From IMG/VR virus record IMGVR_UViG_3300029848_000008: a stretch of DNA of 59,375 bases; one strand, 5' to 3'. Both the position numbers and the translations under genes were made by a program. Each line of letters starts with the position of its first letter. Position 1 is the first letter of the stretch. Positions 5,126 to 56,467 of this stretch are shown piece by piece. The stretch is from a virus. The notes beneath the pieces were generated by a model. That model was not told where the DNA came from. It made no database searches and saw only the letters and a list, made by a program, of their open reading frames with translations.

Positions 5126-6559
5126 TTACAGCACCGCCTTCAGGAACACGCTCAGGTCTACCGTGGGCTTTTCAGCATAGCAGTAGGCCGTCAGGCTTCC
5201 AGCAGCCGTAACCAGCCGGGTAATGCAGGCAAAGCCTTCCGCCAGCGCCTCGTAGTTATCCAGCGTCGCGCCGGAAAAGTCCCAGTCAGCGGTAGGCCGT
5301 TCCACCTCCGGCAGCCCCTCCACTGTCACCGTCTGGGTGTAGGGAGCCGTGTCGCTCCAGCCGGAAGCAGGCAGTGTAACGGTAAAGTCCAGCGCCCGCA
5401 GCAGCTCCCGGTCGCAGGCCACGGGCACGCCGCCCGCGAAATACACCGGCTTCACCGAGGAGCCCGCCGCCTGCGTGTCCTTCATGGCTCCCAGTCCGGA
5501 GCGAATCTGGCTTTGCTGCTCAGCCGTGTAGGTGGCTGCGGCCATGGCGGCGGCAAGGCCGGTTTTGTCCAGCTTCTTGTCCTCCAGCGCCTTGCCCTGG
5601 CTGGCGGCCAGCACCTTGCCTGCTGTATTGGTGGTCAGGTTGCTGACGACGTCCACCGCCTTCAGTGCACCCAGTGCCACATTGCCGTTTTCATCGGGGT
5701 ATAGACTGTCCACTGCAGATACACTGCCCGCGCCAGGAATACCCCGGGGAATTCGAAGGGTGATATACTTGTCCTCGGCAGTGCCGCTGACGTCGATGCC
5801 TACTTCCGTTCCTGGGTCGCCGGTTTCGGCAGAGAAGTGCAGATTGGGCGTAGCACCCGTGTCTCCTTTAGGAATGCCGAAAGCAATGTGATATGCACCA
5901 TTTTGATTGGTAATCTCCGCCGAAGCGTCGACAGTCGGCAGCTTGGTAACTGCTTCCACCGTCATGCCGGTAATAGCCGCTGCGGCCGTATTGGCAGCGC
6001 TGGCAGCAGTGTTGGCCGACTTTGCCGCCGTGTTGGCTGCGGTTGCTTTTTGGTCAGCCAGCGTGGCTTTGGTATTTGCGCTATCGGCGGCGGTCGTGGC
6101 ACTGTCCGCTGCCGTGTTGGCTGCGCTGGCAGCGTTGGTCGCACTTTCAGCTGCGCTTTGGGCGGCGGATGCTTTGCTCTCCGCCAGTGCCGCTTTTTCA
6201 TTCGCAAGGTCGGCCGCAGTGCTAGCCGCCTGCGCCGCCGTAGTGGCAGCAGCTGCTTTCTGATTGGCTGCGGTCGCGGCATCGTTGGCAGCGCTGGCCT
6301 TCTGATTGGCTGTCGCAGCGGCGTCATTGGCTGCGGTTGCCGCTGTGCTGGCCGTCTGAGCCGCCGTGTTTGCCGCTGCAGCCTTCTGGTCCGCTAACGC
6401 GGCTTTTTCCGTGGCGGCAGCCGCGGCGCTGTCGGCAAGGGTCTTGCTGGCGGATACATCCTCGTAGCACTGACGGATGCTGTCATGGATAGCCCCGCGC
6501 ACCTCCTCGCCGTATACGGCTTCCTTAATCGCCTGCAGGTTTTCGGCAATGGTCGCCAT
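5126..6559 (-). CDS. Alanine-rich coiled-coil tail fibre
   Basis: AGGAGG RBS. N-terminus IKEAVYGEEVRGAIHDSI is typical of fibre/RBP proteins. About 170 aa of A/T/N/K-rich repeats. Confidence 0.8.
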   Translation of the reverse strand: MATIAENLQAIKEAVYGEEVRGAIHDSIRQCYEDVSASKTLADSAAAAATEKAALADQKAAAANTAAQTASTAATAANDAAATANQKASAANDAATAANQKAAAATTAAQAASTAADLANEKAALAESKASAAQSAAESATNAASAANTAADSATTAADSANTKATLADQKATAANTAAKSANTAASAANTAAAAITGMTVEAVTKLPTVDASAEITNQNGAYHIAFGIPKGDTGATPNLHFSAETGDPGTEVGIDVSGTAEDKYITLRIPRGIPGAGSVSAVDSLYPDENGNVALGALKAVDVVSNLTTNTAGKVLAASQGKALEDKKLDKTGLAAAMAAATYTAEQQSQIRSGLGAMKDTQAAGSSVKPVYFAGGVPVACDRELLRALDFTVTLPASGWSDTAPYTQTVTVEGLPEVERPTADWDFSGATLDNYEALAEGFACITRLVTAAGSLTAYCYAEKPTVDLSVFLKAVL

Positions 6560-27215: not shown

Positions 27216-27995
27216 TCAGTCCTTTATGCTGCCGTATTTTTTTTCCCGTTCTTTACGTTCTTGTTTGCTCTCAAAAAGAACAACACGTTCTCGATCAAAC
27301 AGTGTGTTCAACCAGTTTTCAGCATCTTGCTTATTAGCTGCGGCCGACCGATAACTCTCTTGGTTAGGCGCCCATTGGTTTCTTACCACATTTTGGTATT
27401 CCATATCCTTTTTGGCTCGATTAAGAATCGCGTTCAGTTCGGCATTACTATATTCACCTGGATTTTTCTTGGGGTCGATTTTTATTTCGGAGTTTTGATT
27501 CTTTTTTTTAGTTTGTTTATCGGCTTCGGATTCTTTTTTATCGCCATTGGCAATCTTATTAGCGAGTTTTTCTAAGCGACCAGCGACAATGGTTTGAATA
27601 AATTTTTTGGATTGGCTTTTAACAAATGATTCGGCCTTTTCCTGATTATTTTTCTTTTGCTTCTTGTTCTGCTCATTTTGGTTATTATTGCCTTGACCAT
27701 TCTGTTCCCCAAGCTCGTACTTTTTTAATTCAGCTTGGATTTGAGCAATATCTCGTTCCATCCGAAGACGCTTAAGTACTTGGCTAAGTTCCTCGTCGTT
27801 CATCTCGGAAACTTTCTTACCCCCGCTTTTTCCTGCTGGGGGCTTTCCGCCCTTTCCAGAGGAATCCGCTTCACCGCCGCCGATGCCATAACGCTTTTTC
27901 CCGGCAGCCGTAAGCGATCCATCTTTGTTCTGGAAACGGCGCACGCCCCACTTCATTCCATGAATGCCATGATGGGCCAATTCTTCGCTTTGCAT
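27216..27995 (-). CDS. Lys/Asn-rich protein with an N-terminal HHGIHGMKWGVRRF motif (function unknown)
   Basis: Start at MQSEELAHHGIHGMKWGVRRFQNKDGSLT behind an AAGGAGGG RBS. The centre is low-complexity K/N/Q/E. Confidence 0.6.
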   Translation of the reverse strand: MQSEELAHHGIHGMKWGVRRFQNKDGSLTAAGKKRYGIGGGEADSSGKGGKPPAGKSGGKKVSEMNDEELSQVLKRLRMERDIAQIQAELKKYELGEQNGQGNNNQNEQNKKQKKNNQEKAESFVKSQSKKFIQTIVAGRLEKLANKIANGDKKESEADKQTKKKNQNSEIKIDPKKNPGEYSNAELNAILNRAKKDMEYQNVVRNQWAPNQESYRSAAANKQDAENWLNTLFDRERVVLFESKQERKEREKKYGSIKD

Positions 27996-27996
27996 A

Positions 27997-28350
27997 TCAT
28001 CCCTCCTTACTTTTCTCTTCATCCGCCAGTATGGAAATGCGCCACTCGTACTCGTCGGCCTGCTTTTTCATGCTGTCGGCAACCGTGCCGATGGTCGGCG
28101 GGTCAAAGACCAGCTTGGTTCGCAGGTACATCCACGTCTGCACAATCTGCCATTTGGGGTCGTCCCCCAGCAGGTCGCGCCATGCGGTGGAACCGTCCGC
28201 CACACTCATGCCTTCCGCCGGGCCAACGCCAAGCTGGGTCAGCACCGCAAGCAGGGCGTTGATGTGAATCAGCAGATCGGTTTCAAACGCCGGGTCGTCG
28301 GACATGCCGCCCAGCAGCTTCCGAATGGAAAATAGAATACTTGCGCCCAT
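27997..28350 (-). CDS. Conserved phage protein, unknown function
   Basis: 117 aa. Motifs LLIHINALLAVLTQLGVGPAEG...KLVFDPP...EYEWR. Confidence 0.55.
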   Translation of the reverse strand: MGASILFSIRKLLGGMSDDPAFETDLLIHINALLAVLTQLGVGPAEGMSVADGSTAWRDLLGDDPKWQIVQTWMYLRTKLVFDPPTIGTVADSMKKQADEYEWRISILADEEKSKEG

Positions 28351-28362
28351 GTGCTTCCTCCT

Positions 28363-28806
28363 TTAGTGCCTCCATGGGCACATGTCGTTTTGGCTGCGGA
28401 CGACTGGTCCCTTCGGCAGCAGGGATTCGTCTCCGTAATGAATGGCGTTGTGGGTGGTCATTCGGGTGCACACCACGTTTTCCGGGTCCAGGATGCAGCG
28501 CCGGTGCTCCAGAATATCTTCTTTGCTCAGCGGGTTCAGGTGGTGGATGAGAATCTTGCTCCACCGCCTGTCCTTGCAGCTGGCCGGGTAAATTTCGTGC
28601 CCCGGCATGGCGAGGTCGCAGCCTTCATCCCGCACGATGATCTCGTTCCGAAAATGCCGCCATTCCTCCGACTGGTAAAACATCTGGTTCAGGTATCGGT
28701 CATAGCCGAAGGTCGTGTCTCCGATTTTTCCGTCCAGCCGCAAATATCGGAATCGCTCTTCAAACGTCGGCAGCTGAATCAGCTCGGAATAGGTTCGGTA
28801 AATCAT
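28363..28806 (-). CDS. HNH endonuclease (packaging-associated)
   Basis: ILIHHLNPLSKEDI...THNAIHYGD (H-N-H). Classic position next to the terminase genes in cos phages. Confidence 0.8.
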   Translation of the reverse strand: MIYRTYSELIQLPTFEERFRYLRLDGKIGDTTFGYDRYLNQMFYQSEEWRHFRNEIIVRDEGCDLAMPGHEIYPASCKDRRWSKILIHHLNPLSKEDILEHRRCILDPENVVCTRMTTHNAIHYGDESLLPKGPVVRSQNDMCPWRH

Positions 28807-29141
28807 TCGCCCTCCTGCCTGCCGCTGCCGGTATAGGTGCGCATGGCCTGCAGCGCGTTCGCATACAGCTCCTTGATCTCCTGAACCGATTCCAGATTCT
28901 GCGTTTTGGCCTTGATGAGCTTCGCCTGCTCCCGGAGAATATCCCGTTCCATCTTTTCCCGGGTGGACGCCAGCTTCAGAAAGTGCGTAACCTCCTGCGA
29001 ACTGGCCGTGCCCTCCAGAAGCCGCTTCTCCACCAGGTCAACCGCCAGCCCGATCAGCTGCTGCTCCCGTGCTTCCGGCGTAAGCGCCGGTCTGATTCTT
29101 TTCCCGGAGCCAGAAGAGCTACCGGTTCGTACTTTTGGCAC
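28803..29141 (-). CDS. Small basic coiled-coil protein, possible small terminase/packaging DNA-binding protein
   Basis: GTG start behind a GAGGAGG RBS. It is the first gene after the large non-coding region. Positional call. Confidence 0.35.
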   Translation of the reverse strand: MPKVRTGSSSGSGKRIRPALTPEAREQQLIGLAVDLVEKRLLEGTASSQEVTHFLKLASTREKMERDILREQAKLIKAKTQNLESVQEIKELYANALQAMRTYTGSGRQEGE

Positions 29142-29205
29142 CTTTTCTGCCTCCTCTCAGTTTGTTTCAGTAAAGAATACAGCTGTATCCTTATTGTTTT
29201 TCTAG

Positions 29206-29330
29206 GGTACTTGAAGGAACCTACAGAGCTTTGTTGGCGGTAAGCGATCCGATGAAAGGAGAAACCAATATGGCAGGAGGTTTCATATGAAAGAAAGGAG
29301 AGAAACACTCTGTAGGCTCGTTCAAATACC
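29206..29330. repeat. 23-nt imperfect inverted repeat pair in the non-coding region upstream of the packaging genes
   Basis: GGTACTTGAAGGAACCTACAGAG (29206-28) versus the reverse complement of 29308-30, GGTATTTGAACGAGCCTACAGAG. 20 of 23 match. Confidence 0.8.
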
Positions 29331-29539
29331 CCGGCAAAAAGTAAAAACACCTCCAAAAACCTACCCCCGGAGAATTTTCAAGGAGGCGCGCGATGCAGGA
29401 GGGGGAGTGTTTTTGGCGGACCCCCCTCCTATATGGGAAGGGGAAAGCGCCGTGCATGCAGAAGAAACCCGCGCTGCAGGGCCGGAAAACACGCAGCCTT
29501 GCGGCGATGCAGCGCAAAAGAAAGCCAGAAAGACGAGCA

Positions 29540-29788
29540 TCAGTCGTCTGGGAGATCACGCTGGACCTTGATGTAGAGGCCAGTGGGATCGTGGGCTATG
29601 ATGTCGTCAATGGCTCGCTCAATTTCAGCCTCGTTTTCCTGATCTGTCAGGGAATCGGAAGTGTGAGCGAAGCGGTCGAGGCGCTCACAGGAGAAATAGT
29701 GATGCTCCTGATCGAACGCCCACCACGAATTGAATTGCAGAAAGGGATCAAAGGGATTGTCCCGAGTAGAAAGCGCACATTTTGCCAT
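29540..29788 (-). CDS. Small acidic conserved phage protein
   Basis: 82 aa. DNPFDPFLQFNSWWAFDQEHHYFSCERLDRFA. Confidence 0.55.
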   Translation of the reverse strand: MAKCALSTRDNPFDPFLQFNSWWAFDQEHHYFSCERLDRFAHTSDSLTDQENEAEIERAIDDIIAHDPTGLYIKVQRDLPDD

Positions 29789-29801
29789 ATATTCACCACC
29801 T

Positions 29802-32495
29802 TCATTCTACGCCGCGAGCGTAGTTGGAAACGGTAGAGGTAGAAAGATTCAGCGCGTCGGCGATCTGCGAATAGGTGTAGCCGGAGGCGAGCATGGAGTC
29901 GATGCGGGCCTGCTTGGCAGTCGTTACATTGGCCCGTGTCTTGGGCAAGGCACGCTGGATGACCTCATTATCCTTGCAGTAGCGCAGAATAGCGGTCAGC
30001 TTGGTAGGGCTGATGGCACGGGCCTGAATGGCCTCCCATTCCCGGTCGGTGATCGTGATGCGGGTGTCCTTGCCGTTGGCTCCAACCTGCGCCCTGGCGT
30101 CGTATATGGCCTGATCCCGCAGCTTTCGCAGGGCCTTCTTATCCATGCCGGGGTTGTCGTCCTGCTGGGCCTTGATACGGGAGTTTGCGATAGCCTGGGC
30201 CCGGCGCTCACGGGGCGCGTTCTTCATGGCGATCTGCAGCTTGGCCTCCAGGGTGTCCACTTCCGCCCGGTAGGTCTCCCTGGAGCTGGAAAGGGCGGGT
30301 GGCTCTTTGGTAGCCAGGTACTCCTTCCGCGCCCTGTTTGCCAGTGCCTTCATCCGGTTCGCATAATCTGCGTACAGCTCCTCCTGCGGGGTGCCAGACG
30401 ACAAGCTGTGCACGTCCTTGGTGACGGACATGAGAGAAACCTTATCCATGACAGGAACCCACTCGCCGGTCTTGTCGTCTTTGTACTTGCGGCCGGAGGT
30501 CTTGTAGACCATCTCGCCGGTGACGGGGTCGATTCGCCCACTGCCCTTCCGCTCAGCTACCTCAACGGTCTGCTTCTTACGGCTTAAAAGAGTGGAAGCC
30601 CCACCCTCCTTGATCTCGCCGGTCTCCGGGTCCACCCGGCGCTGGTACCGGCTGCGCAGCTCCTGAATACCGTTGTCCTTCTCAGACTGCTTATAGTCCA
30701 GATGATGCTTGGCCGCGTCGATGACCACCATGGAGTGGCGCACAGCCCGGGCGATGTCGTCCTCAGAGGCGCCCTGCAGGGTCATGTCCGTGATGAGGTT
30801 AGAGACCATACCCATCTGCTTCTGGGTCATGGCCTTAGTCATAACCTTCATACCCGGGCGCTCTGCGTATTGAGTCTTGGGGTCAAAGCCTTCCAGCCCC
30901 TTCAGGGGACGGGTGGACTTAATCTGCACCCGATCGCTCAGTGGAATGACGGTGACGGTATCGCCGTCGAAGTCCGCGCCACTTAGCCGCTCGGCCACCT
31001 TTGCATTGATTCCTACCGCATCGGCCACGTTACCCAACAGGCTTTTGCCCGAAGGATTCTTGTTATTGACCGTCAGCACGGGGATCTCAAAGGTGCCGCC
31101 GTGAGGATAGCGGACCAGTGCCACCTGCTCTCCGTTGCGGTAATTGGGGGCGTAGATCTCCGTGTCGCTGATGCCGTCCAGCGGCAGAATGACCTGCGTG
31201 GACTGCCTGGGCAGCGCCGCCGCTTTCAAATGGACGGTGGCTCCGTCGCACTGTTTGGCAAAGTCCATCAGCATCTTTTTTTTGATGGTAGGATTGGTGT
31301 AGGAGCAGATCTCGTCGAACTGCGCCACTGCGTCGTCATAGGTCAGGTCCAGCTGACTCTTGATGAGCTTCAGCGGCTGCTTGCCAAGAAACTGCGAGGA
31401 CAGGGTGCGGCCCATGGTATCCCAGTCACCCTCCTCCTTCAGCTTGTTGATGGCGGAGAGGTGCTGCTTGCCGTCCTTATCAGTGTAGTAACTTTGTCCC
31501 TCGGCCTTGATGTATGCGCCGAAGGGGTTAGTGGGATCGTCGTGTTTGATCTCCTTGAGCACGTCCATCTTGTCGGTGCCGGATTTCTTATTGGTATTGA
31601 AGACGATGTCCTTGCCCTCGGGGATGTTGTCAGAATACATAGCCATGCCCTTGAGGTAGTGGTCGCCGTCCACCAGAATGCGCACCTGCGCGTAGTGAGC
31701 ATTGCCCAAGTCCAGATCGGCCACGCCCCGGCGAATCTCAATCACACCGTCCTTGCTAATGCCGCCCTGATCGCCATAGCGGATGTCCACCCGGCTGGAG
31801 TCGATGCTGGCCGGGTACTGCCGCTCACGGTAGGTGAAGCCGCCGTCGTCGGAGTGATAATCCATGACGGACTGAATCTCGCCCACCTTCTGGTAAATAT
31901 CCTTCTCCGGGATCTCGGGGCGGGTGAGGACAATGGTGTTGGACTGCTTGCCCGGATTGGTCACCTGGGGAATGCCGCCGCCGTAAACGTTGTAACCCTC
32001 GTTTTCCAGGATCATCAGCGCTTCCCGCAGCTTTGACTTGGAAATGCCCAGCTCAGTTTCCACGCCAGCGCCCACGTCGATCATGCTCTTAGATTCCAAC
32101 TGGCGGCGTAGAATATCCGCAGTGGCCTGGGCCTGATTTTTCCGCTCAGCTACCGCGCTGTTCTCCAGCGCCCGAATGGAGGACTCGTTCCTGCCCATCT
32201 GCCGGGCGATTTCCGCAGTGGTCAGGCCGTCGGCCCGCAGGCTCTTAATACGGTCGATCTCCAGATTGCGCCGCTCATGCTTGGCGGCGGTGACGTAGCG
32301 GCGAAGCTCGGTAGTGGAAATATTCATCTCCCGAGCCACATCCTTTTCAGAATATCCATTACCCTGAAGGCTCTCCACCCGGCTTAGGAAGTCCCCGCTT
32401 CGCTGGAAGGGCTTGTCGCCCGAGCCCCAGGGATAGCGGCCGGAACGCCGCTTGATGCCGTAGTGCATTAGAATATCATCGTTCACGCGGCCCAT
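29802..32495 (-). CDS. Candidate single-subunit two-barrel RNA polymerase (YonO/RdRP/beta-prime-like DFDGD centre) with HTH modules
   Basis: VALVRYPHGG...VAERLSGADFDGDTVTVIPL (DFDGD encoded at 30960..30974). HTH-like segments GLTTAEIARQMGRNESSIRALE and GYTYSQIADALNLSTSTVSNYARG. ATG at 32495 behind a GGGAGG RBS. Confidence 0.5.
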   Translation of the reverse strand: MGRVNDDILMHYGIKRRSGRYPWGSGDKPFQRSGDFLSRVESLQGNGYSEKDVAREMNISTTELRRYVTAAKHERRNLEIDRIKSLRADGLTTAEIARQMGRNESSIRALENSAVAERKNQAQATADILRRQLESKSMIDVGAGVETELGISKSKLREALMILENEGYNVYGGGIPQVTNPGKQSNTIVLTRPEIPEKDIYQKVGEIQSVMDYHSDDGGFTYRERQYPASIDSSRVDIRYGDQGGISKDGVIEIRRGVADLDLGNAHYAQVRILVDGDHYLKGMAMYSDNIPEGKDIVFNTNKKSGTDKMDVLKEIKHDDPTNPFGAYIKAEGQSYYTDKDGKQHLSAINKLKEEGDWDTMGRTLSSQFLGKQPLKLIKSQLDLTYDDAVAQFDEICSYTNPTIKKKMLMDFAKQCDGATVHLKAAALPRQSTQVILPLDGISDTEIYAPNYRNGEQVALVRYPHGGTFEIPVLTVNNKNPSGKSLLGNVADAVGINAKVAERLSGADFDGDTVTVIPLSDRVQIKSTRPLKGLEGFDPKTQYAERPGMKVMTKAMTQKQMGMVSNLITDMTLQGASEDDIARAVRHSMVVIDAAKHHLDYKQSEKDNGIQELRSRYQRRVDPETGEIKEGGASTLLSRKKQTVEVAERKGSGRIDPVTGEMVYKTSGRKYKDDKTGEWVPVMDKVSLMSVTKDVHSLSSGTPQEELYADYANRMKALANRARKEYLATKEPPALSSSRETYRAEVDTLEAKLQIAMKNAPRERRAQAIANSRIKAQQDDNPGMDKKALRKLRDQAIYDARAQVGANGKDTRITITDREWEAIQARAISPTKLTAILRYCKDNEVIQRALPKTRANVTTAKQARIDSMLASGYTYSQIADALNLSTSTVSNYARGVE

Positions 32496-32496
32496 C

Positions 32497-33057
32497 TCAG
32501 GCAACCTCCCTTCGTTTCATGGCCCGGATAATCTCGTCCGCCCGGACGATCCGCTCCATAATGGCGGAAATATCATTTGGATCGGGCTTGTCGTAAAGCA
32601 CCTCGTCGTTCTGATAGATGCGCAGCTCCATGGGAATATCCACGGGCTTGCGACGGTATTCCAGGCAGAAGAGCGCGGCGTAGATGCGCAGCTGCTCCAT
32701 GTGCGCCGGGACTGTTCCAGTCTTCAGATCATGGATGCGGAGAAAATCATTGCGAAAGCTGATGGCGTCCGCGGTGCCGAAGCAGTTTTCGGAATAATAT
32801 AAAACCTGCTCCGGCGTCATCTTGAATCCGATGGCGTCATTGACGTACATGTTCAGTGTCTTGGCGCTTTTCTGCAGCTTGATGCCGTGGCGGATAGCCT
32901 GTGCAGCGAAGGCATGAAGCTCCGTGCCCCGCTGCACCGCCAGAAAGTTCTGATAGCTTTCCGCCAGCTTGTCGTCTGTGTAGTTGATCCAGTGGTATTT
33001 GCTGGCTCCCAGAAAGGCGTGCTGCCCTTCAAGGTCCAAATGTCTGTTGAAGTCCAT
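32497..33057 (-). CDS. PD-(D/E)XK nuclease superfamily protein
   Basis: GTADAISFRNDFLRIHDLKTG (D...D-L-K). GAGGAGGAGG RBS. Confidence 0.6.
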   Translation of the reverse strand: MDFNRHLDLEGQHAFLGASKYHWINYTDDKLAESYQNFLAVQRGTELHAFAAQAIRHGIKLQKSAKTLNMYVNDAIGFKMTPEQVLYYSENCFGTADAISFRNDFLRIHDLKTGTVPAHMEQLRIYAALFCLEYRRKPVDIPMELRIYQNDEVLYDKPDPNDISAIMERIVRADEIIRAMKRREVA

Positions 33058-33319
33058 GGAGTACCTCCTCCTCGTTTTCCGGATAGATGAATGCGGCGAA
33101 GGACATCTGGTTCATTTTCTCCACGTAATACTGCTGATTGGGGCGGTGCGGGCTGATGGGGGATTGCTTTCCCTCCAGCGCGGCCCAACGGTTCTGGTAC
33201 AGAACCACCAGATCGGGAATGCCCTGAGTTTCGTTGGGGTTGGGATGTAAAATCACGCAGCCCGGAAACAGGTCCCGCAGCTTCCGGCACAGCCGGGTCT
33301 TGAAGCGGTTTTCCAGCAT
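33029..33319 (-). CDS. VRR-NUC domain nuclease
   Basis: GIPDLVVLYQNRWAALEGK (P-D...E-x-K), ~96 aa. Confidence 0.65.
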   Translation of the reverse strand: MLENRFKTRLCRKLRDLFPGCVILHPNPNETQGIPDLVVLYQNRWAALEGKQSPISPHRPNQQYYVEKMNQMSFAAFIYPENEEEVLHGLQQTFGP

Positions 33320-33378
33320 TCGCAGCGCCTCCTTTCAGACCAAATAGAAAAGAGAAGGGGGACAAAGGTCTCCTTCTC

Positions 33379-33406
33379 TTCATAAAAGGGGCTGTTTTTT
33401 TCGCGG
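33379..33406 (-). promoter_or_regulatory. Early-region motif copy 1
   Basis: Minus strand reads CCGCGAAAAAAACAGCCCCTTTTATGAA. Lies ~60 nt upstream of the VRR-NUC start. Confidence 0.5.
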
Positions 33407-33459
33407 ATGAAAAAACAGGGGCTGAAAAATATCAGACCCTGTCGCCAGTTCAGTGGTTT

Positions 33460-33759
33460 TCAGTAAACGTCGTCGTAATCGTCGCCCCAGACGGAGCCGG
33501 TATTTTTGTAAGACGAAATGCCGGAAGCCCAGCTCAGATACTCGGTGGGGCCGAAGACGAAATGGCACTGGTGGCAGAAATAGCACACACCGTCGGAGTC
33601 AGTGACGGTGCCCTTGCCGCCGCAGCGGGGACAGTCGCCCTTCACAAAGGTCTTGGCAAATTCCGCCATGTGTTTCTCGTCAGCCTCTTCGGCTTCGTAG
33701 TCTGTATCGTCATCAGGATCGTAAATATCACTGTAGTCATCATCGTCATACCAGCTCAT
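33460..33759 (-). CDS. Highly acidic zinc-ribbon protein
   Basis: D/E/Y-rich termini (MSWYDDDDYSDIYDPDDDTDYEAEE...GDDYDDVY) flank CPRCGG...CYFCHQC. Confidence 0.6.
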   Translation of the reverse strand: MSWYDDDDYSDIYDPDDDTDYEAEEADEKHMAEFAKTFVKGDCPRCGGKGTVTDSDGVCYFCHQCHFVFGPTEYLSWASGISSYKNTGSVWGDDYDDVY

Positions 33760-33803
33760 AGGGAGACCTCCTGTTTTGGCAGATTTCGAATGCTCGGGTC
33801 TTT

Positions 33804-33832
33804 ATCATAGCACCAGTTCATTCGTTCCGCAA
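33804..33832 (-). promoter_or_regulatory. Sigma70-like promoter
   Basis: Minus strand reads TTGCGG, 17-nt spacer, TG-c-TATGAT. Lies upstream of 33759. Confidence 0.45.
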
Positions 33833-33852
33833 GACAGGACGGCGGCTCCGGC

Positions 33853-34065
33853 CTAATTCGAAGGCTTCTGCTTCGCCAGCGAGGTCAGAATGTTTTTCCA
33901 AAGCTCCCGCCGGTCCTTGCACTCCTTCTCCCGCTGCCCCCGCAGGGTGACGGCCCCGAAGGAAATACTGCCCGCAATGGCGAACAGTCCGGACGCAATC
34001 ATCAGGGTCATGTTCTGGCGAACAATGGCCACGATGAAGGCCGCTAACGAGAATATCCAGCCCAT
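33853..34065 (-). CDS. Small 2-TM membrane protein
   Basis: Start at MGWIFSLAAFIVAIV behind an AAAGGAGAG RBS. Second hydrophobic helix LMIASGLFAIAGSISFGAV. Confidence 0.55.
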   Translation of the reverse strand: MGWIFSLAAFIVAIVRQNMTLMIASGLFAIAGSISFGAVTLRGQREKECKDRRELWKNILTSLAKQKPSN

Positions 34066-34121
34066 CTTTTTTTTCTCTCCTTTGCTGCGATTTTCGGGGG
34101 TAAAAGGGCCTGTGGCCAAAA

Positions 34122-34383
34122 GCCCACTTTGGTGACGCTATTTCTCTATATTTCTTTATTTTTTTTCCACGCATAAATAAAGAAAAAAAGTGGGCAAAGT
34201 GGGCAGAGACCCACAAACCCTTATACATCAACGGTTTGCGGCTGCCCACTTTTGAAATAAAAGTGGGCGAAAACCCACTTTTTTTGGGCTTTTTTCGTCC
34301 GAAGCCGTTTTGGCCGGCTCTCAAATTTGCCCAAAACCCACAAAAAGTGGGCGCGCGGCCACTTTTCCAATACCAAAGTGGGC
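34122..34383. repeat. Iteron-like array of AAGTGGGC/GCCCACTT 8-mers around an AT-rich core (putative replication origin or operator array)
   Basis: Forward copies at 34188, 34197, 34261, 34345, 34376. Reverse copies at 34122, 34244 and (7/8) 34273. GTGGG-N5/6-CCCAC pairs. AT-rich stretch 34141..34190. Confidence 0.6.
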
Positions 34384-34445
34384 AGAAAAAGAAGAGGGAC
34401 TGACCAATGTCAGCCCTCCCTTTTCTACCGAAAATCCGTCTCTTT

Positions 34446-34679
34446 TCAGTCCAGATGTTCCACGGTTTCCTCCGTCAGATTCACCGCATTCTCCGTCAAT
34501 TCCGGGAGCGCCTCCGGGGTGGTGGAGCCGCAGAGCTTCTTCAGGCCGAACACCGCGCCGCCGATTCCAGCGCCGATGCCCAGGCCGATGACTGTCCTGC
34601 GGAACCATTTTTTCTCCTTCAGATTTTCCCATTTTTCCTTGATGGTGGTCTTGGTTTCCTTCATTTCATTGGTTTCCAT
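34446..34679 (-). CDS. Small single-TM protein
   Basis: 77 aa. AAGGAGGA RBS. TM segment TVIGLGIGAGIGGAVFGL. Confidence 0.6.
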   Translation of the reverse strand: METNEMKETKTTIKEKWENLKEKKWFRRTVIGLGIGAGIGGAVFGLKKLCGSTTPEALPELTENAVNLTEETVEHLD

Positions 34680-34717
34680 GATGAATATCCTCCTTCAAAA
34701 TGTGATCCTTTTTCGGA

Positions 34718-34745
34718 TTCATAATAGCGAGTGTTTTTTACGCGG
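34718..34745 (-). promoter_or_regulatory. Early-region motif copy 2
   Basis: Minus strand reads CCGCGTAAAAAACACTCGCTATTATGAA. Overlaps the stop of 34738..35217. Confidence 0.5.
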
Positions 34746-35217
34746 AAAAGTGGGCGTCGTCCCACAGCTGCAAAAGGTGCCTGGACAGGCCCTCTGTCAC
34801 ATGCAGAAGATCCGCTGCTTCTTCCAGCGACTTGCCCTCCTCGCAGAACAGCCGGTGCATAGCAGAGATCAGCTCGGCGCGCTCCTCATCCGGCAGGGCC
34901 TCGAAGCCCCGGGCCGTCAGCTGTACGCCGGACTGAGCCCACGCTTCCTTCAGGGCCAGCACCCGTTCCCTGGCTTCCTTCATGGTGATGCCCTGAGCCT
35001 TGTGGCTGTCGTAGTACAGGCGTACCGCATCATATAGAAGATCGTGGGCGGCCAGATACTTGACACTTGGTCGCTCCACGCAGTAGGCCACGCCTGGCAG
35101 GCCCAGTGCGAAAGCACGTACCGCCGCGTCATCCTTCAGGCGCATGCCAAGGGCCAGCGCCACCTTGCGCACCTCCCGGCTATCCATCAGGGAACCATTG
35201 CGAAGACTGAAATACAT
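34738..35217 (-). CDS. Hypothetical protein with a C-terminal HTH-like segment
   Basis: 159 aa. KSLEEAADLLHVTEGLSRHLLQ. Its 3' end carries another GTGGGCGTCGTCCCAC iteron pair (34750..34765). Confidence 0.5.
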   Translation of the reverse strand: MYFSLRNGSLMDSREVRKVALALGMRLKDDAAVRAFALGLPGVAYCVERPSVKYLAAHDLLYDAVRLYYDSHKAQGITMKEARERVLALKEAWAQSGVQLTARGFEALPDEERAELISAMHRLFCEEGKSLEEAADLLHVTEGLSRHLLQLWDDAHFSA

Positions 35218-35264
35218 GGGAATTCCTCCTTTTTACTGAGCTACAGATAGAATATCAATGAGGT

Positions 35265-35711
35265 TTAGTGCAGATAGTGCTCCTTTTTATAGCGGCAAGT
35301 GACCACCTTGCCGATGCGAGCGTTCCGAATCAGCCGTGCACACATGTCACAGGGAACAGGCCGTGGAATGATCTTTCCATTTTCCCAGCCCGCCAGATAT
35401 AAGGTTGCGCCGATCATGTCCGCCGGGTCAGCATTCAGAATAGCGTTCGCCTCCGCGTGGACGGCCTGACACAGCTCGTACCGCTCGCCGTGAGGAATGT
35501 TCTGCTCCTCTCGAAGACACAGGCCAACGTCCGTACAATTCTGCTCGCCCCTGGCTGAGCCATTATAGCCGGTAGAGATGATGTGGTCATCCTTCACAAT
35601 GACCGCACCGTATTTTCGCCGAAGACAGGTGCTGCGCATGGCTACAGCCAGAGCAATGTTGAAATAGTATTCCTCCTTGGAGGGGCGCTCCTGTGGCTTT
35701 GGGGTACTCAT
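35265..35711 (-). CDS. dCMP deaminase (ComEB-type)
   Basis: HAEANAI and PCDMCARLI zinc motifs, plus TGYNG. ATG at 35711 behind a GAGGTG RBS. Confidence 0.85.
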   Translation of the reverse strand: MSTPKPQERPSKEEYYFNIALAVAMRSTCLRRKYGAVIVKDDHIISTGYNGSARGEQNCTDVGLCLREEQNIPHGERYELCQAVHAEANAILNADPADMIGATLYLAGWENGKIIPRPVPCDMCARLIRNARIGKVVTCRYKKEHYLH

Positions 35712-40404: not shown

Positions 40405-40764
40405 TCAGCCCTTTCTTTTTTCAGGTTTCTCCGAAAAAGGGGCTGCTGATTTCGCGGACGCGATACGGATGAAATATCCCGTGGGTCCGGTGGGGGAAAC
40501 CACGTACTCCGCCCGTACAACCTGCCGTGCCAAAATGAAGCGGTTCAGGCACCGGGCCGCGATAGGCTTCCCCTTGGGCAGACCATCCAGCTCAATCACC
40601 AGCGTATCAGGGTCAGTGATTTCCAGAAGGAAGCACGCTTTTTTCTCCCGGATGGGAAGCTGCTTCAGCAGCTCGCCAAGAGACAGAAACGCAGGCATGG
40701 AGAAGACCCAGCGGGCGTCTCCGTTAGCATATTTTTCCGCCAGATGGGCTCTGAGCATGGTCAT
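40405..40764 (-). CDS. Hypothetical protein
   Basis: Start at MTMLRAHL with an ATGA overlap onto the upstream stop. Confidence 0.5.
   Translation of the reverse strand: MTMLRAHLAEKYANGDARWVFSMPAFLSLGELLKQLPIREKKACFLLEITDPDTLVIELDGLPKGKPIAARCLNRFILARQVVRAEYVVSPTGPTGYFIRIASAKSAAPFSEKPEKRKG
40430..40457 (-). promoter_or_regulatory. Early-region motif, degenerate copy
   Basis: Minus strand reads CCGCGAAATCAGCAGCCCCTTTTTCGGA. Shares CAGCCCCTTT with copy 1. Lies inside the 3' end of 40405..40764. Confidence 0.3.
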
Positions 40765-44622: not shown

Positions 44623-44639
44623 GGTGCGCAAAGCGCACC
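44623..44639. promoter_or_regulatory. 17-bp perfect palindrome GGTGCGCAAAGCGCACC (operator-like), copy 1
   Basis: Abuts the -35 of the minus-strand promoter. Same element at 44738 and 48962. Confidence 0.6.
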
Positions 44640-44690
44640 CTCCGTAAAACGCATGGTTTTTCACGCGGCATTCGGCGGCTAAACGGGGCG

Positions 44691-44804: not shown

Positions 44805-44993
44805 ATGAAAGGAAAAAGCGGAATGAACGAAACGCAACTTTCCAATGTTCAAGTAGGCAAGTCAACGCCCTGGTTAGCCGCCGGTGCCATGATCGCAATC
44901 ACCGGATTGCTGGGATTTGCAATCGCTAAGGATGATCGGTTCCGATTGCGTTACCAGGGTTTCGAATGCACAATAGAGCCTGCTACGCTGTAA
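44805..44993 (+). CDS. Small plus-strand single-TM ORF converging on the polymerase gene
   Basis: 56-62 aa (ATG at 44805 or 44823). TM segment PWLAAGAMIAITGLLGFAIA. Weak RBS. Overlaps the polymerase stop by 11 nt. Confidence 0.4.
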   Translation: MKGKSGMNETQLSNVQVGKSTPWLAAGAMIAITGLLGFAIAKDDRFRLRYQGFECTIEPATL

Positions 44994-47900
44994 ACCCTTC
45001 AAAGTCGCCGTACTGGCTGATGGTCTGCACGGCGTCGTCCGCCAGCTTGCGGTAGTAGCTGCAGTCGATGTCCGCCTCCTTGCCCAGGCCTCGCACCATT
45101 TCCGATTCCAGCCAGCGGTAGCCCTTGCTGCCCGTGGCGGCGGAATACTTGCCGTCCTTTTCCCGCAGCAGCAGGCCTCCGCCCTTGCCGGGAAGGATGG
45201 GACAGAACTGACCTACCTTGCCCACAAAGCGGTAATGGTGCTCATCCTCCGGCAGGTCCTCGTTCATATCCAGGTATAAGCTGCTGGTAACGGACTTGGT
45301 TTCGCACAGGTCTTCGAAGGCGATTTCTTCCCGGCTGAACAGAGTCTTGAATACGTAGGGCACGGCAAACTGGGCCCCGGTGGCCGTCCATTGGCCGCCA
45401 TGTTTGGCGCAGTCCTTGGGAGAATATCCATAGGCGTTCTGGCACCAGTCCGCGTCCGCATATTTGGCAATGTATACAGCATCGTTCACCAAGCACATGC
45501 GTCCATATGTGGCCTCATGCTCGAAATTGTAGCCATAGCGCTTGCCGTACTCCATCACAAGGGCAATGATCTCCGGCGTCGCATTGGGAATCTTGATAGA
45601 GTCTGTCTTGATGTGAGCCACGGTAAAGCCCTGCTCCTGTACAACGCGCTTTAAGTTAATCATGAACAACGCGCCCCGCTTGGCCACAATGTTGTCCTTG
45701 TTTCGGATGTCCCTAAAGGGATTGTCGAACTTGGCACTTGTCAGGCCGTACACCGAGTTGATGGCGATTTTCAGTGCACCCGCCAGATCGTCCGCCGCGT
45801 TTTCGTCCGTCAGGTACTTGGCCAGCGCACCGCCCAGCATTTTCCTGGCCCGGTCGAAGTCCCGGTGCTTGATGGCAATGCGCGCGTCCAGAATTTCCTT
45901 GAACCGGGCGGTGTACTCTGGGCCGAACAGTTCCTCTGCTACGATGCTAGATGGGTGCATGCTGGCAATATCCAGAAGAGCCACGTCCGTATACATGCCA
46001 GGCTCGGCGTATACGTAGCCGCCTTCGCCAACCTCTTCGCCACGGTAGGTACTTTTACCGTTTTCGTATCGGTAGCCGGGGAACACAGGGCGGTTGTGAA
46101 TATCAAAGCGGGTGTGATCGTCCACCTTGCCGGTGAAGAACACGCTGTCCACCAGCACGGTGCAGTCGTCGTTGTCGTGCACTTCGCCCATGTCCCGGTA
46201 GGAAAAGGCACTTTGGGGGGTGCGATTCTTGCCGAAGATGATGCGGGTGGTCAGGCTGTTGGTGGTATCATTCACGGTCATGCCCGCCACGTCCGCCAGA
46301 ATCTGACGAGCGGTGAAGTCCGCTCTCAGATGGTTGAAGACCTTCTCGGTAGCGATGACGTCATTATCACAGTATTCTGCTACCTTGCTCCACTGGTCCT
46401 CAGGCACAGGCTGATCCCAGGGAAGGCCCAGTTCCTGATGGTGAATACCCAGCTCGATCTCCCATTTTTTCAGGCTCTGCTTTTTCTTGCTGAAGTCGTA
46501 CACATCCGTATAGCTCACGTTATACGCCTCTCCGAAGAAGCAGTTGGCGCTGCCCGTGACGATGCGGTTGGACAGAGTGTACAGCCGGGCGTTATCATAG
46601 CCCATCAGGCAGGCGTAGAGCATGTGGTTGTCGTACCGGCGGCAGTTAAAGCCCACCAGCCGGAACTTCATCAGGGCCTCGATTTCCGCGGGCTTGGGGT
46701 TTATCATGCGCACCACGGGCTTGCTCTCGCCCTGTTTTTTCCAGTTGACCAGAAACAGGTTGGGGAAGACCTCCACATCGTAGAACACCAGCTCACTGCC
46801 GTCGTTCACGGATGGGTCGGAGATCTCGTCGCTTTTGAACTTCATTTTGTTTACCAGCTTCAGGCAGGCATCCGCCTGATGGGTGCTGCTGGCGGCGAAG
46901 GCCAGAATGCCGTTGCGCATGTCGGTCACATCGTAGTGCAGGCCGCTTGCGTAGGCGTCTTCCAGAATTTTGTAGATGAAGTCCACGCTGGGCTTGGTGG
47001 CGGGGTGAATTTCCTTGTTCAGGTTTCGGAGGATCAGCGTCCGAAGCCCTTTTTCACTTTTGACAGTATCAAAGTTGACCATTTTCTCTCCTTTCAGGGG
47101 CAGACCCGAGGAAATCGTGCTGACGGGCAGCTGGTTGCAACGGCTCAGCCTGCGCCGTAGGCTGCTGCTGCCGGTGAATACCTTCACCTCGATATGGTCC
47201 TCGTACACCCGGCTCAGCCGGGAGGGGTCGCCAGAATAAAGATAATGCAGGTGAATACCCGCCCCACCCTTGCTGACTTCCGCGTAGGTGGGCGGCCACT
47301 TGCTTGCCTCCTGCCGGTTTTTCTCAAAGCATTTGTTTCCGTTTTCGTCCGTCAGGTCGAAGTCAATCACAATATGATTTTCCGGCACTCGCACATAGTG
47401 CAGACGGCGGGTGTCCAGCTCCTTGAGGGTGGTGGTCACGTCCGTCCACTTCTTCTGGGGCGTTTCCCGCTCGCTGGCGTACTGGGCCGGGCAGTCCGCG
47501 CAAAGCTTGTCCAGAATGGACTCGCCCTCCTCCAGTTGAAGCCAGCTCTTCGTACTGGCAGGCGGCGGTTCCGACTCTGATTCCTCGAAAATATCCGTGC
47601 GGAAGCCCGTATACCGGCTGCGCACCCGGGCGCCGTCCTCCTGCTGCCACCGGTCCCGGTATTCCCGAAAGTAGTTCTTCAGCTCTTCCTTAAACACACG
47701 CTGGCTCATGGGATAACCCACCTTGGCCTCGTCGCAGTAGGTCTTATACATCTCCCATGCGGCCTTCAGGGTGGTGCCATCCTCCTTAAGGAACACTGGG
47801 TAGCTGTCCAGCATGTAGTTATAGAAGTCGTTGCTGGCCCCCATCATGGCCGTGGGAATATAATGATCGTATCGGCCCGGGTCGCTGCGATAGAAGGCTA

Positions 47901-48891
47901 GGCATCGGCTGGCAATGGCCCCCAGCTCAAAGCTGACCTGCTTCATCACTTGCTTGTACTCTGCAGCGGGCAGCTTGTCACCGGAGGGTGAAATATCAAT
48001 CAAACGGCGGATGAGGCCGCTCTTGCCGTCGGTGATGCGCACAGGCTTGTTGGTGCCCATGAACAGGAAGCACTTGAAGCGGTTGGCGTAGGTGGACTTG
48101 AACTTTTCGTTCACGGTCATCAGCTCGTGGCTGACCAGTGAGTTCAGGCGGGTGTTGTCCTCGATCCGGCTCAGGTCGCCGTCGTGCTGAATGGCTACCA
48201 GCGGGTTGGACTTGAAGGCCTCCAGCGCAAAGCTGTTACTGGAGGAGCCCAGCGCCTTGGCGTCAAACACCGATGTATACCCCTCGAACAGCTGGCCGAT
48301 CACATTCAGGATGGTGGATTTACCCGTTCCAGCCGCACCATAGAGCACCGCGAACTTCTGCAGCTTCCGACTATCGCCGCTGACCACGCTGCCAATGGCC
48401 CATTCGATCTTCGCCCGCTCCTCGGGAGAATATAACGTGCCCGTCAGCCGGTCCCAGGCGTCAGTGGGCCCCTCCTCAAGCGGATAGGGCAGCTTTTTGG
48501 AGGCGTAGTCCTTCTTTACGGTGACCGTGTTCTGGAAGATTAGCTTCTCGTCCAGCATGTGGAAGCTGTCACGCATGTCCTTCTGGCAATACTGGTGCCA
48601 GACGGAGATCATGCGGCTTTCCGCGTCCCACATGTGCATCACTTTCACGTGGCCCTCCAGCCGTTCCTGGTTTTCGTCCGCATAGCGGTCCAGCTCCCGG
48701 TCAATCAGCTGCAGCGCGTCCTGTTCGTCGGTGGACCACAGACCCCGTTCCTCCAGCCAGACGGCGTAAAAGTCGCCGCCACGAATCATCAGGTCGGCGC
48801 TTTTCTTAATGATGAATTTTGGATAGATTTCGATGACGCCCCTCTTCGTGGGGCGGGTCGCAATGGTGACAAAGTCGAGCATGGTGTTCAT
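44983..48891 (-). CDS. Helicase (P4/D5-type P-loop) - AEP primase - family B DNA polymerase fusion protein
   Basis: VLYGAAGTGKST. HIVIDFDLTD plus GGAGIHLHY. Exo motifs FYDVEV, GFNCRRYDNHML, YCDNDV. Pol motifs LLDIASMHPS, KIAINSVYG, HIKTDS. The ATG at 48882 has the better RBS spacing. Confidence 0.8.
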   Translation of the reverse strand: MNTMLDFVTIATRPTKRGVIEIYPKFIIKKSADLMIRGGDFYAVWLEERGLWSTDEQDALQLIDRELDRYADENQERLEGHVKVMHMWDAESRMISVWHQYCQKDMRDSFHMLDEKLIFQNTVTVKKDYASKKLPYPLEEGPTDAWDRLTGTLYSPEERAKIEWAIGSVVSGDSRKLQKFAVLYGAAGTGKSTILNVIGQLFEGYTSVFDAKALGSSSNSFALEAFKSNPLVAIQHDGDLSRIEDNTRLNSLVSHELMTVNEKFKSTYANRFKCFLFMGTNKPVRITDGKSGLIRRLIDISPSGDKLPAAEYKQVMKQVSFELGAIASRCLAFYRSDPGRYDHYIPTAMMGASNDFYNYMLDSYPVFLKEDGTTLKAAWEMYKTYCDEAKVGYPMSQRVFKEELKNYFREYRDRWQQEDGARVRSRYTGFRTDIFEESESEPPPASTKSWLQLEEGESILDKLCADCPAQYASERETPQKKWTDVTTTLKELDTRRLHYVRVPENHIVIDFDLTDENGNKCFEKNRQEASKWPPTYAEVSKGGAGIHLHYLYSGDPSRLSRVYEDHIEVKVFTGSSSLRRRLSRCNQLPVSTISSGLPLKGEKMVNFDTVKSEKGLRTLILRNLNKEIHPATKPSVDFIYKILEDAYASGLHYDVTDMRNGILAFAASSTHQADACLKLVNKMKFKSDEISDPSVNDGSELVFYDVEVFPNLFLVNWKKQGESKPVVRMINPKPAEIEALMKFRLVGFNCRRYDNHMLYACLMGYDNARLYTLSNRIVTGSANCFFGEAYNVSYTDVYDFSKKKQSLKKWEIELGIHHQELGLPWDQPVPEDQWSKVAEYCDNDVIATEKVFNHLRADFTARQILADVAGMTVNDTTNSLTTRIIFGKNRTPQSAFSYRDMGEVHDNDDCTVLVDSVFFTGKVDDHTRFDIHNRPVFPGYRYENGKSTYRGEEVGEGGYVYAEPGMYTDVALLDIASMHPSSIVAEELFGPEYTARFKEILDARIAIKHRDFDRARKMLGGALAKYLTDENAADDLAGALKIAINSVYGLTSAKFDNPFRDIRNKDNIVAKRGALFMINLKRVVQEQGFTVAHIKTDSIKIPNATPEIIALVMEYGKRYGYNFEHEATYGRMCLVNDAVYIAKYADADWCQNAYGYSPKDCAKHGGQWTATGAQFAVPYVFKTLFSREEIAFEDLCETKSVTSSLYLDMNEDLPEDEHHYRFVGKVGQFCPILPGKGGGLLLREKDGKYSAATGSKGYRWLESEMVRGLGKEADIDCSYYRKLADDAVQTISQYGDFEGFTA

Positions 48892-53556: not shown

Positions 53557-53571
53557 AGCAGTAACCTCCTT

Positions 53572-53599
53572 TTCATAATACTTGCTGCTTTTTTCGCGG
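53572..53599 (-). promoter_or_regulatory. Early-region motif copy 3
   Basis: Minus strand reads CCGCGAAAAAAGCAGCAAGTATTATGAA, immediately before the RBS of 53556. Confidence 0.5.
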
Positions 53600-54783: not shown

Positions 54784-54811
54784 AGTTTTCGCCTTCATAA
54801 AGGAAACGGTT
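54784..54811 (-). promoter_or_regulatory. Early-region motif copy 4
   Basis: Minus strand reads CCGCGAAAAAAACCGTTTCCTTTATGAA. Confidence 0.5.
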
Positions 54812-54875
54812 TTTTTCGCGGATGAATTTGGTCCGAAGCCTTCAATGAATGACAGGGCAAAAAAAGAAAAGAGTC

Positions 54876-55091: not shown

Positions 55092-55124
55092 ATTGTATTC
55101 CTCCTTCAAATTTCGGGTTTCCTG

Positions 55125-55152
55125 TCCATAATATCTGCTGTTTTTTTCGCGG
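55125..55152 (-). promoter_or_regulatory. Early-region motif copy 5
   Basis: Minus strand reads CCGCGAAAAAAACAGCAGATATTATGGA. Confidence 0.5.
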
Positions 55153-55585: not shown

Positions 55586-55612
55586 TTTTGATACCTCCTG
55601 CAGTTGTTTCTC

Positions 55613-55640
55613 TCCATGATATAGCCAGCTTTTCTCGCGG
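55613..55640 (-). promoter_or_regulatory. Early-region motif copy 6 (variant)
   Basis: Minus strand reads CCGCGAGAAAAGCTGGCTATATCATGGA. Confidence 0.4.
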
Positions 55641-56441: not shown

Positions 56442-56467
56442 ATCTTTCTCCTCCTTTGGAATGGTTT

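Follow-up and report, generated by a model that had tools for sequence, protein, structure and literature searches.

The gene described here raises a plain question: does a large phage protein, named a polymerase in some records and a DNA-binding protein in most, synthesize RNA, and if so, from which template and for which genes? It lies in a 59,375-nt stretch of viral DNA (IMG/VR record IMGVR_UViG_3300029848_000008), which is called the window in the following. The open reading frame (ORF) occupies positions 29802..32495 of the minus strand, to which all coordinates below refer unless stated otherwise, and encodes 897 amino acids (aa) from an ATG, with an in-frame TTG three codons upstream at 32504. 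An initial annotation of the window had proposed a single-chain two-barrel RNA polymerase fused to helix-turn-helix (HTH) modules and active on late genes. Direct translation and the ORF list agree with it on the ORF, on the peptide that it cited (EQVALVRYPHGG...GADFDGDTVTVIPL, aa 456–519 of the product) and on the placement of the DFDGD catalytic motif (aa 508–512) at 30960..30974. The reading that we favour, to which we give a probability of roughly 0.55, is that of a single-subunit DNA-dependent RNA polymerase that reads 31-nt promoters by its HTH modules and is possibly delivered by the virion.

Fold and active site of the 897-aa protein

Homologues were gathered by three database searches, and 59 of them, 39–68% identical to the query, were aligned. 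R462, P464, D508, D510 and D512 are invariant across this alignment. In the 897-aa protein, R462-Y-P464 is followed by D508-F-D-G-D512 with 43 residues between P464 and D508, and the conservation of DFDGD, on which the initial annotation had made its proposal depend, is complete (59/59 homologues). These residues fall within a beta-prime-like barrel (aa 430–520; 30936..31208), which comprises R462-Y-P464 and the metal-binding loop and is recognized from the invariant columns, a sub-threshold Pfam match to the family of RNA-dependent RNA polymerases (RdRPs) and an hhalign alignment on YonO.

A second, beta-subunit-like barrel region is located upstream (aa 236–315; 31551..31790), where the structural model described below places strands over aa 236–300 with pLDDT values of 86–93. 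In and near this beta-rich region D249, R255, R272, K282, D296, N300, K303 and K314 are likewise invariant in the 59 homologues, and Y268-AQVR272, H279-YLKG283 and F299-NTNK303 stand out as conserved stretches. A beta-like barrel with conserved lysines had been anticipated at about aa 230–330, and K282, K303 and K314 answer to that expectation. The segment HYLKG...DIVFNTNK resembles what we take to be the corresponding bacterial beta sequence, RHGNKG...DIVLNP. Conserved residues of the beta-type barrel elsewhere in the superfamily are D709, R738 and K743 in QDE-1 and D837, K979 and K987 in Rpb2. Past the catalytic barrel, two conserved helices (aa 554–617, 30645..30836; model helices 554–573 and 578–597) carry the invariant residues M561, G562, S565, N566, L567, D570, M571, H587, S588, M589, V591, I592, D593, K596 and H597. 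These helices occupy the position of the bridge helix and trigger loop, and may serve the same functions.

The AlphaFold2 model built from the 59-homologue alignment has a mean pLDDT of 77.4, with values of 80–93 over aa 230–620. A Foldseek search of this model against the PDB gave 15 matches at E ≤ 0.001, every one of them a two-barrel RNA polymerase. The strongest were to QDE-1 (7Y7P, 5FSW and 2J7N; E 1.6e-9 to 1e-7, probability 1.0), followed by gp64/gp62 of the Thermus phages P23-45/P74-26 (8F72 and 8F5M; E 1.6e-7) and Arabidopsis RDR2 (7EU1; E 6.5e-6), while multisubunit beta-prime chains and the crAss-like gp66 formed a weaker tail at E 0.01–0.1 (0.033 for gp66). A structure search of BFVD led to the Thermus phage P23-45 protein and to phage proteins labelled 'RdRP'. 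The fold search and the invariant catalytic residues therefore support the class to which the initial annotation had assigned the protein, and the AlphaFold and Foldseek comparison that it suggested yielded two-barrel RNA polymerases as the only significant matches. A barrel with R-x-P and DxDxD, an upstream barrel with acidic and basic residues and the overall fold are all those of the two-barrel superfamily, and the protein belongs to its QDE-1/phage branch, which includes the Thermus phage gp64. None of the other large ORFs of the window that were scanned matched an RNA polymerase family; they encode a 2076-aa tape measure protein, a 1302-aa helicase-polymerase fusion, and tail, capsid and terminase proteins of 624, 590 and 580 aa. 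A polymerase hidden in the tape measure protein, as in P23-45, was considered and rejected, since the tape measure protein proved ordinary when scanned.

QDE-1 and the other eukaryotic cellular RdRPs (PF05183; 2J7N, 7Y7P, 5FSW and RDR2, 7EU1) share with the 897-aa protein the single chain, the succession of a beta-like and a beta-prime-like barrel and the DxDGD loop, at an identity of 11–12% for QDE-1 and RDR2. To our knowledge, QDE-1 has not been described with fused HTH modules. The match to PF05183 is confined to aa 499–603 and remains below the gathering threshold (20.1 against 23.8 bits, E=2.9e-4). Starting from an alignment of the family, Koert et al. (bioRxiv 10.1101/842583) obtained an HHpred probability of 95.7% to RdRP. 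With QDE-1 and RDR2 as its nearest structural matches and a sub-threshold RdRP match in Pfam, the protein might be taken at its RefSeq name, as an RNA-templated polymerase that makes double-stranded RNA from phage or host transcripts, in order to regulate or to counter a defence. We see very little chance of this, because the name 'RNA-dependent RNA polymerase' goes back to the Pfam family, PDB titles show DNA to be a template for QDE-1 as well, YonO and phage gp64 of the same superfamily are DNA-dependent, and three fused DNA-binding HTHs in a double-stranded DNA phage point to DNA templates. QDE-1 and RDR2 differ, moreover, in being eukaryotic enzymes that act on RNA or single-stranded DNA in silencing. 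The label is misleading, and replacing it, like the bare HTH label of most other records, affects how a large group of phages is understood with regard to its transcription programme, its sensitivity to rifampicin and its host range.

Among phage enzymes, the second-best structural match is gp64 of Thermus phage P23-45 (gp62 of P74-26), a single-subunit non-virion polymerase which has a promoter motif of its own and serves the early and middle genes of the phage (Chaban et al. 2024, PMC10770324). Both are single-subunit phage enzymes tied to a promoter motif; gp64 differs in its length of ~590 aa, in having no reported HTH modules and in its GC-rich, unrelated motif. P23-45 also has a virion polymerase fused to its tape measure, unlike the window. 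YonO of the Bacillus prophage SPbeta is comparable as a single-chain two-barrel polymerase of ~100 kDa from a temperate siphovirus, and Ruprich-Robert and Thuriaux (2010) listed the phage-1706 group among YonO-like proteins. When the core alignment was compared with YonO by hhalign, RYPH...DFDGD was placed on RSPH...DNDGD with equal spacing, but at E=0.4 and a probability of 0.15. Since this similarity is not significant, the 897-aa protein lies outside the YonO family proper and the 'YonO-type' label of the initial annotation has to be given up. No HTH is detectable in YonO by Pfam.

The gene adds a new, uncultured member to a large family already annotated and described. Its product matches PHROG 4291 ('RNA-dependent RNA polymerase') over aa 5–894, corresponding to profile positions 8–906 of 909 (E=0, 1221 bits), and tblastn located full-length homologues in ~250 phage records, with a coverage of 98–99% in 249 of them. 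The identity is 55% to the homologue of Faecalibacterium phage FP_oengus, 41–49% to those of Arthrobacter, Gordonia, Curtobacterium, Microbacterium, Rhodococcus and Streptomyces phages and 37–38% to those of Lactococcus 1706-like phages; the closest relatives, 98% and ~68% identical, are uncultured and unannotated sequences of gut metagenomes. The homologues are named 'putative RNA polymerase', 'RNA-dependent RNA polymerase' or, in most records, 'HTH DNA-binding domain protein'. When the core alone was searched exhaustively, at least 1584 clusters at 50% identity were returned. Proteins in the best 150 clusters are mostly ~890–1090 aa long and begin to match near residue 135–250, so that an N-terminal extension is generally present. 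The initial annotation had considered the architecture undescribed. This does not hold, because PHROG 4291 matches the product over its full length, ~250 phage records carry full-length homologues and the same layout, with HTHs on either side of an RdRP-like core that contains DxDGD, was reported in the 2021 preprint of Koert et al. (bioRxiv 10.1101/842583), where RNA polymerase activity was proposed and the protein was counted among the very few conserved across the whole phage group. That preprint makes no mention of promoters, and no paper combining two-barrel, phage and HTH was found in the open-access literature. Members from cultured phages (FP_oengus gp55, 1706 ORF75 and the actinophage proteins) share the HTH-core-HTH order, DFDGD, synteny and the promoter-like motif described below; at 37–55% identity, no architectural difference from the 897-aa protein was found.

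Helix-turn-helix modules and a 31-nt promoter-like motif

Two HTH modules are present at the N-terminus and one at the C-terminus, where the initial annotation had seen them, with scores above the Pfam gathering cut-offs. The first (aa ~46–79; 32259..32360) is covered by HTH_Tnp_1, HTH_7 and GerE stretches over aa 43–79 and by model helices 50–56 and 61–88. The second (aa ~83–115; 32151..32249; model helices 93–100 and 104–111) resembles sigma-70 region 4, and Sigma70_r4_2 matches its aa 87–109 with 42.4 bits, or 33.9 bits when the N-terminal piece is searched alone, against a cut-off of 25.7. The C-terminal module (aa 854–895; 29811..29936; model helices 859–893) is of the LuxR/GerE type and is matched by GerE, HTH_23, HTH_38 and HTH_7, the GerE score on aa 860–894 being 37.2 bits (28.7 for the C-terminal piece alone; cut-off 23.5). 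The second N-terminal and the C-terminal modules thus match, above threshold, families whose members read duplex promoter DNA in bacteria. In contrast to sigma-70 region 4 and LuxR proteins, the HTHs are here covalently fused to a polymerase, sigma region 2 is absent and the function is a predicted one.

The Pfam scan of the protein also gave weak HTH matches to terminase small-subunit families. Together with the SEA-PHAGES label 'helix-turn-helix DNA-binding domain protein', borne by most records, and the position of the gene next to cos (see below), these matches could indicate a DNA-binding regulator or packaging protein in which the polymerase core is only vestigial. There is hardly any likelihood of this, since an inactive active site would drift, yet no catalytic residue varies from phylum to phylum, and conservation along the protein is highest in the ~700-aa core.

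A repeat search of the window revealed a motif, TCCGCGAAAAAAACAG-N4/5-TWTTATGAA, on the coding strand. Six copies lie within three mismatches, as compared with 0.64 expected by chance, and a weight matrix finds about ten. The copies are confined to the coding strand and to the early/replication half of the window (33–57 kb), each of them 11–56 nt upstream of a start codon that is usually adjoined by a ribosome-binding site; neither the mismatch search nor the weight matrix found a copy among the late genes of the window. The best match to the consensus is the 31-mer CCGCGAAAAAAACAGCCCCTTTTATGAAGAG at 33376..33406, 56 nt upstream of the endonuclease start, whose orthologous copy is conserved in FP_oengus and in the sequences labelled L007 and L008. 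Further 31-mers are located at 34715..34745 (ahead of the ORF starting at 34679), 53569..53599, 54791..54821, 55122..55152 and 56925..56955, with weaker copies at 40427..40457, 44638..44668, 55610..55640 (ahead of the ORF starting at 55585) and 56465..56495.

The motif recurs in related phages of distant hosts. With three mismatches allowed, the window motif was not found in FP_oengus and L007, although the weight matrix and the alignment of orthologous upstream regions did find copies; on FP_oengus, the matrix built from the window marks ~14 coding-strand copies in the early region. Independent repeat searches in Lactococcus phage 1706 (~10 copies, TCGCATGTTTTACATATACTATAGTAGAAAG), Arthrobacter phage Circum (9 copies, TCGCGTAAATTACACGGGCTATAATGA) and Streptomyces phage Bing (10 copies, TCGCATATTTTACACGCCCTATAATGAGACC) arrived at motifs in the same register. 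One Bing copy, TCGCAAAAAAAACAGCCCCTATAATGAGACC, is closely similar to CCGCGAAAAAAACAGCCCCTTTTATGAAGAG of the window, with polymerases that are just 41% identical. A matrix built from the actinophages Circum and Bing only detects five sites in 1706, two each in the window (33406 and 34745) and FP_oengus, and a single one in L007, against 0.03–0.07 in shuffled controls. The common geometry is C-G-C-R, 6–7 A/T, A-C-A, four variable bases, C, T-W-T-W-A-T and G, and in five phages (the window, FP_oengus, 1706, Circum and Bing) the motif is limited to the early/replication half.

The spacing of the upstream half is unlike that of a sigma-70 -35 element, and the downstream hexamer of FP_oengus, CTTTAT, is without the critical A of a -10 element. 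A scan of 28900..35500 for consensus sigma-70 promoters found no coding-strand site. Because of this spacing, the CTTTAT of FP_oengus and the conservation of the motif across hosts of two phyla, recognition by a conserved phage protein is suggested, for which the HTH-polymerase is the candidate. What is new here is this candidate cognate promoter, common to phages with hosts from two phyla, which makes the function of the polymerase family directly testable. Little is understood of how single-subunit two-barrel polymerases recognise their promoters, and the present family offers an enzyme of ~100 kDa with evident DNA-reading modules and a defined 31-nt candidate promoter. The candidate promoter is carried by cultured, easily grown phages (SEA-PHAGES actinophages, 1706 and FP_oengus), and the 1706-like phages have been described as a virotype that is prevalent in the human gut.

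Proposed target genes, genome end and possible delivery of the enzyme

The endonuclease gene (33029..33319), the gene for a PD-(D/E)XK-type (RecB-like) exonuclease (32497..33057), both directly upstream of the polymerase gene and assigned by PHROG matches (PHROG 93 and 3953 for the pair), probably form one operon with it. A motif copy precedes it in the window, in L007/L008, in FP_oengus (ahead of gp53–gp55) and in Circum. In the model that we favour, the polymerase would be DNA-dependent and would need no sigma factor; its HTH modules would recognise the upstream half, CGCR-W7-ACA, in its double-stranded form, and melting of the A/T-rich downstream half (TWTWAT-G) would set the start site. 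From such 31-nt promoters, the enzyme would transcribe the early and replication genes as well as its own operon. The late morphogenesis operon, free of the motif, may depend on the host polymerase or on transcription that continues through the closed cos site.

The initial annotation had assigned the enzyme to the late genes, and much of the map is compatible with this. In such a scheme, which follows the logic of YonO and T7, the host RNA polymerase would read the 31-nt early promoters through TATAAT, and a non-virion phage enzyme, encoded by the last middle gene, would transcribe the packaging, head, tail and lysis operon on the circularised genome. YonO provides the precedent, transcribing the late genes of SPbeta from a single promoter whose sequence, like the need for a helper factor, remains open (Forrest et al. 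2017, PMC5467207). On the circular map the gene immediately precedes the late genes, its operon has the motif of other early and middle genes, the motifs of Bing and Circum contain a perfect TATAAT, and a temperate lifestyle requires early expression by the host at induction. We nevertheless consider a late-gene polymerase unlikely. The one repeated promoter-like motif belongs to the early/replication half, where it also heads the polymerase operon, whereas the late region has no repeated or conserved candidate promoter; CTTTAT of FP_oengus is not usable as a -10 element; phages from hosts of two phyla share the motif's upstream half, whose spacing fits no sigma-A -35 element; and the 1706 homologue is labelled a structural protein.

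One conserved non-coding element does lie before the late genes, past the 82-aa ORF that follows the polymerase gene. It was examined as a late promoter and rejected, since its alignment to the physical ends of the ReqiPoco6, Bing and 1706 genomes shows it to be the cos site. The junction at 29364..29430 reads GGAGGGGGG-TCCGCC-AAAAACAC-TCCCCCTCC-TGCATCGCGCGCCT followed by CCTTGAAAATTCTCCGGGGG and is conserved in L007 and FP_oengus. It matches the right physical termini of ReqiPoco6, in which a 3' cos overhang is annotated, of Bing and of 1706, and also the left end of Bing. In virion DNA, the position of cos leaves ~420 nt between the polymerase gene and the right terminus. The gene does sit where the initial annotation saw a boundary between replication and packaging genes, although the boundary itself is the cos junction, a genome end. 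A G-rich/C-rich inverted repeat is present directly inside the right genome end at cos.

The same position, at the end of a conserved replication block (helicase, HNH, endonuclease and exonuclease), might suggest a replication primase or origin-activating polymerase, which would supply RNA primers or an origin transcript to the helicase-polymerase fusion and be targeted to the origin by its HTHs. The fusion (1302 aa; 44983..48891; PHROG 4210) joins a D5/SF3-helicase-like part (DUF5906) to a DNA polymerase. It matches just the helicase-like part of 'primase' families, plus the polymerase domain, and no separate primase domain (AEP or DnaG) was recognised in the ORFs scanned. The large protein of Bing is, however, annotated as DNA primase/polymerase, and the motif copies, about ten in number, scattered and placed shortly ahead of ribosome-binding sites, have the appearance of promoters rather than of origins. 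We know of no two-barrel enzyme that acts as a dedicated phage primase, and regard this role as improbable.

With regard to the early-gene polymerase that we favour, its delivery is a further step about which we are less confident: the enzyme may be made late and packaged, to accompany the DNA into the cell in the manner of N4, crAss-like phages and P23-45. This is suggested by the motif heading both the earliest genes and the polymerase operon itself, as the enzyme would be needed before its own gene is read. In the authors' GenBank record of 1706, orf75 is named 'structural protein', and because the same name is given to small ORFs without known function outside the morphogenesis module, the label may have an experimental basis. 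In ReqiPepy6 and ReqiPoco6 it is repeated by similarity. Taken alone, we would put delivery by the virion at somewhat less than an even chance. The strategy so proposed, in which early genes are transcribed by a packaged enzyme, is that of phi14:2 gp66 (6VR4), a crAss-like phage protein which is also a two-barrel polymerase, and of the virion RNA polymerase (vRNAP) of N4. The N4 vRNAP is T7-like. In contrast to the 897-aa protein, to which its fold match is weak, gp66 has 2166 residues, and the presumed virion presence of the 897-aa protein goes back to the annotation of a homologue only. If the virion-borne enzyme is real, it would be a third independent solution to virion-borne transcription.

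Several observations weigh against the model. TM-scores to solved polymerases are low (0.26–0.32), probably due to differing domain orientations. HMMER searches against PDB sequences found no solved polymerase, the single sequence returning HTH noise only and the core profile nothing, and the kinship is for this reason visible at the fold level only. No experimental or biochemical study of any family member was found in the literature. What connects the HTH modules with the motif is correlation only, and the downstream half in Bing and Circum is a perfect TATAAT that the host sigma-A holoenzyme could use. Virion association relies on the depositors' annotation of a homologue just 37% identical. 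Induction of a temperate phage starts without a virion-borne enzyme, so that some host-dependent expression is needed. Finally, the gene is the last in the early/replication block and adjoins the late genes on the circular map, which fits a late-gene polymerase too. In its fullest form, the proposal is that a sigma-independent minimal two-barrel polymerase, whose fused HTHs read a 31-bp promoter in phages ranging from those of Streptomyces and Arthrobacter to those of Lactococcus and gut Clostridia, is packaged in the virion and starts the early programme. We advance this version tentatively and consider it more doubtful than not; if it is true, the family would provide a tractable model for the building of promoter-specific initiation onto an ancestral two-barrel core.

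Neighbouring genes and other features of the window

Bases 1–99 of the window are identical to 59277–59375, and therefore the window represents a circular assembly of a complete genome of ~59,276 bp. It is the complete genome of a temperate 1706-like phage, temperate because it encodes a tyrosine integrase with an N-terminal zinc ribbon (58104..59351). This is the sole plus-strand ORF among those assigned and has the same position in FP_oengus; almost all genes of the window are on the minus strand.

Downstream of the polymerase gene on that strand follow the conserved 82-aa ORF (29540..29788; phrog_4303, no Pfam match), 400 nt of non-coding DNA, a conserved ORF with unassigned function (28803..29141) and an HNH gene, and then the genes for the connector, a DUF7211 protein, the large terminase, the portal and a protease-capsid ORF. 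This order is shared with all relatives inspected (FP_oengus, 1706, Bing, Circum, ReqiPoco6 and one uncultured relative), and the family context of endonuclease, RecB-like exonuclease, polymerase, small ORF and cos end is complete in the window. The position of the 82-aa ORF is equally filled by FP_oengus gp56, 1706 orf76, Bing gp87, Circum gp99 and ReqiPoco6 gp107. Being downstream of the polymerase gene in every relative inspected, the 82-aa ORF is a candidate accessory factor.

The N-terminus of the polymerase carries a near-invariant motif, L-x-HYG-x-x-R-x-SGRYPWGSG (aa 9–26; 32418..32471), of which H11, Y12, G13, S18, G19, R20, Y21 and P22 are kept in 56–59 of the 59 homologues. It is predicted to be disordered, with pLDDT values below 50 over aa 7–26. 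The protein with the DUF7211 motif, encoded between the connector and the large terminase (268 aa; 27216..28022), carries that motif (HHGIHGMKWGVRR) in its N-terminal part and has a long low-complexity tail rich in Lys, Asn and Glu. A tag common to this N-terminus and that of the polymerase (HYGIKRRSGRYPWGSG) was considered and set aside as a weak lead (E=0.005; 16.6 bits, where the cut-off is 27), and DUF7211 gave no match to the polymerase homologues of 1706, Bing and Circum. A docking or packaging peptide common to the two proteins is possible from the resemblance of their termini.

In the single 590-aa ORF at 21976–23748, the N-terminal part weakly matches a prohead protease, and a match to a major capsid protein covers the C-terminal part; the ORF looks like a protease-capsid fusion, as in the annotation of FP_oengus gp71. 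Three paralogues of phrog_2152 are found among the early genes (50467–51402, 52241–52999 and 53610–54353), at least one of them with a promoter-like motif ahead. The first, the only one scanned against Pfam, matches DUF6353, and FP_oengus has three genes annotated as DUF6353.

Three pairs of near-identical segments are present in the tail region (9371–9449/10416–10494, 9884–9918/10914–10948 and 10390–10421/10968–10999). Two of the pairs are ~1,030–1,045 nt apart and the third 578 nt, and one pair has a GC-rich hairpin followed by a T run, which together suggest that a small gene cassette of the tail region was recently duplicated in tandem. Inside a putative tail-fibre gene (5126..6559), a GC-rich repeat with a period of 21 nt runs over 5981–6382 in eight copies and has an Ala-rich translation. 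In phage 1706, the 450-nt gap before orf75 contains a perfect 36-nt direct repeat, CTATCACGAAAAAACTTCGGGAAAACTTCGGGATTG, at 31637–31672 and 31776–31811.

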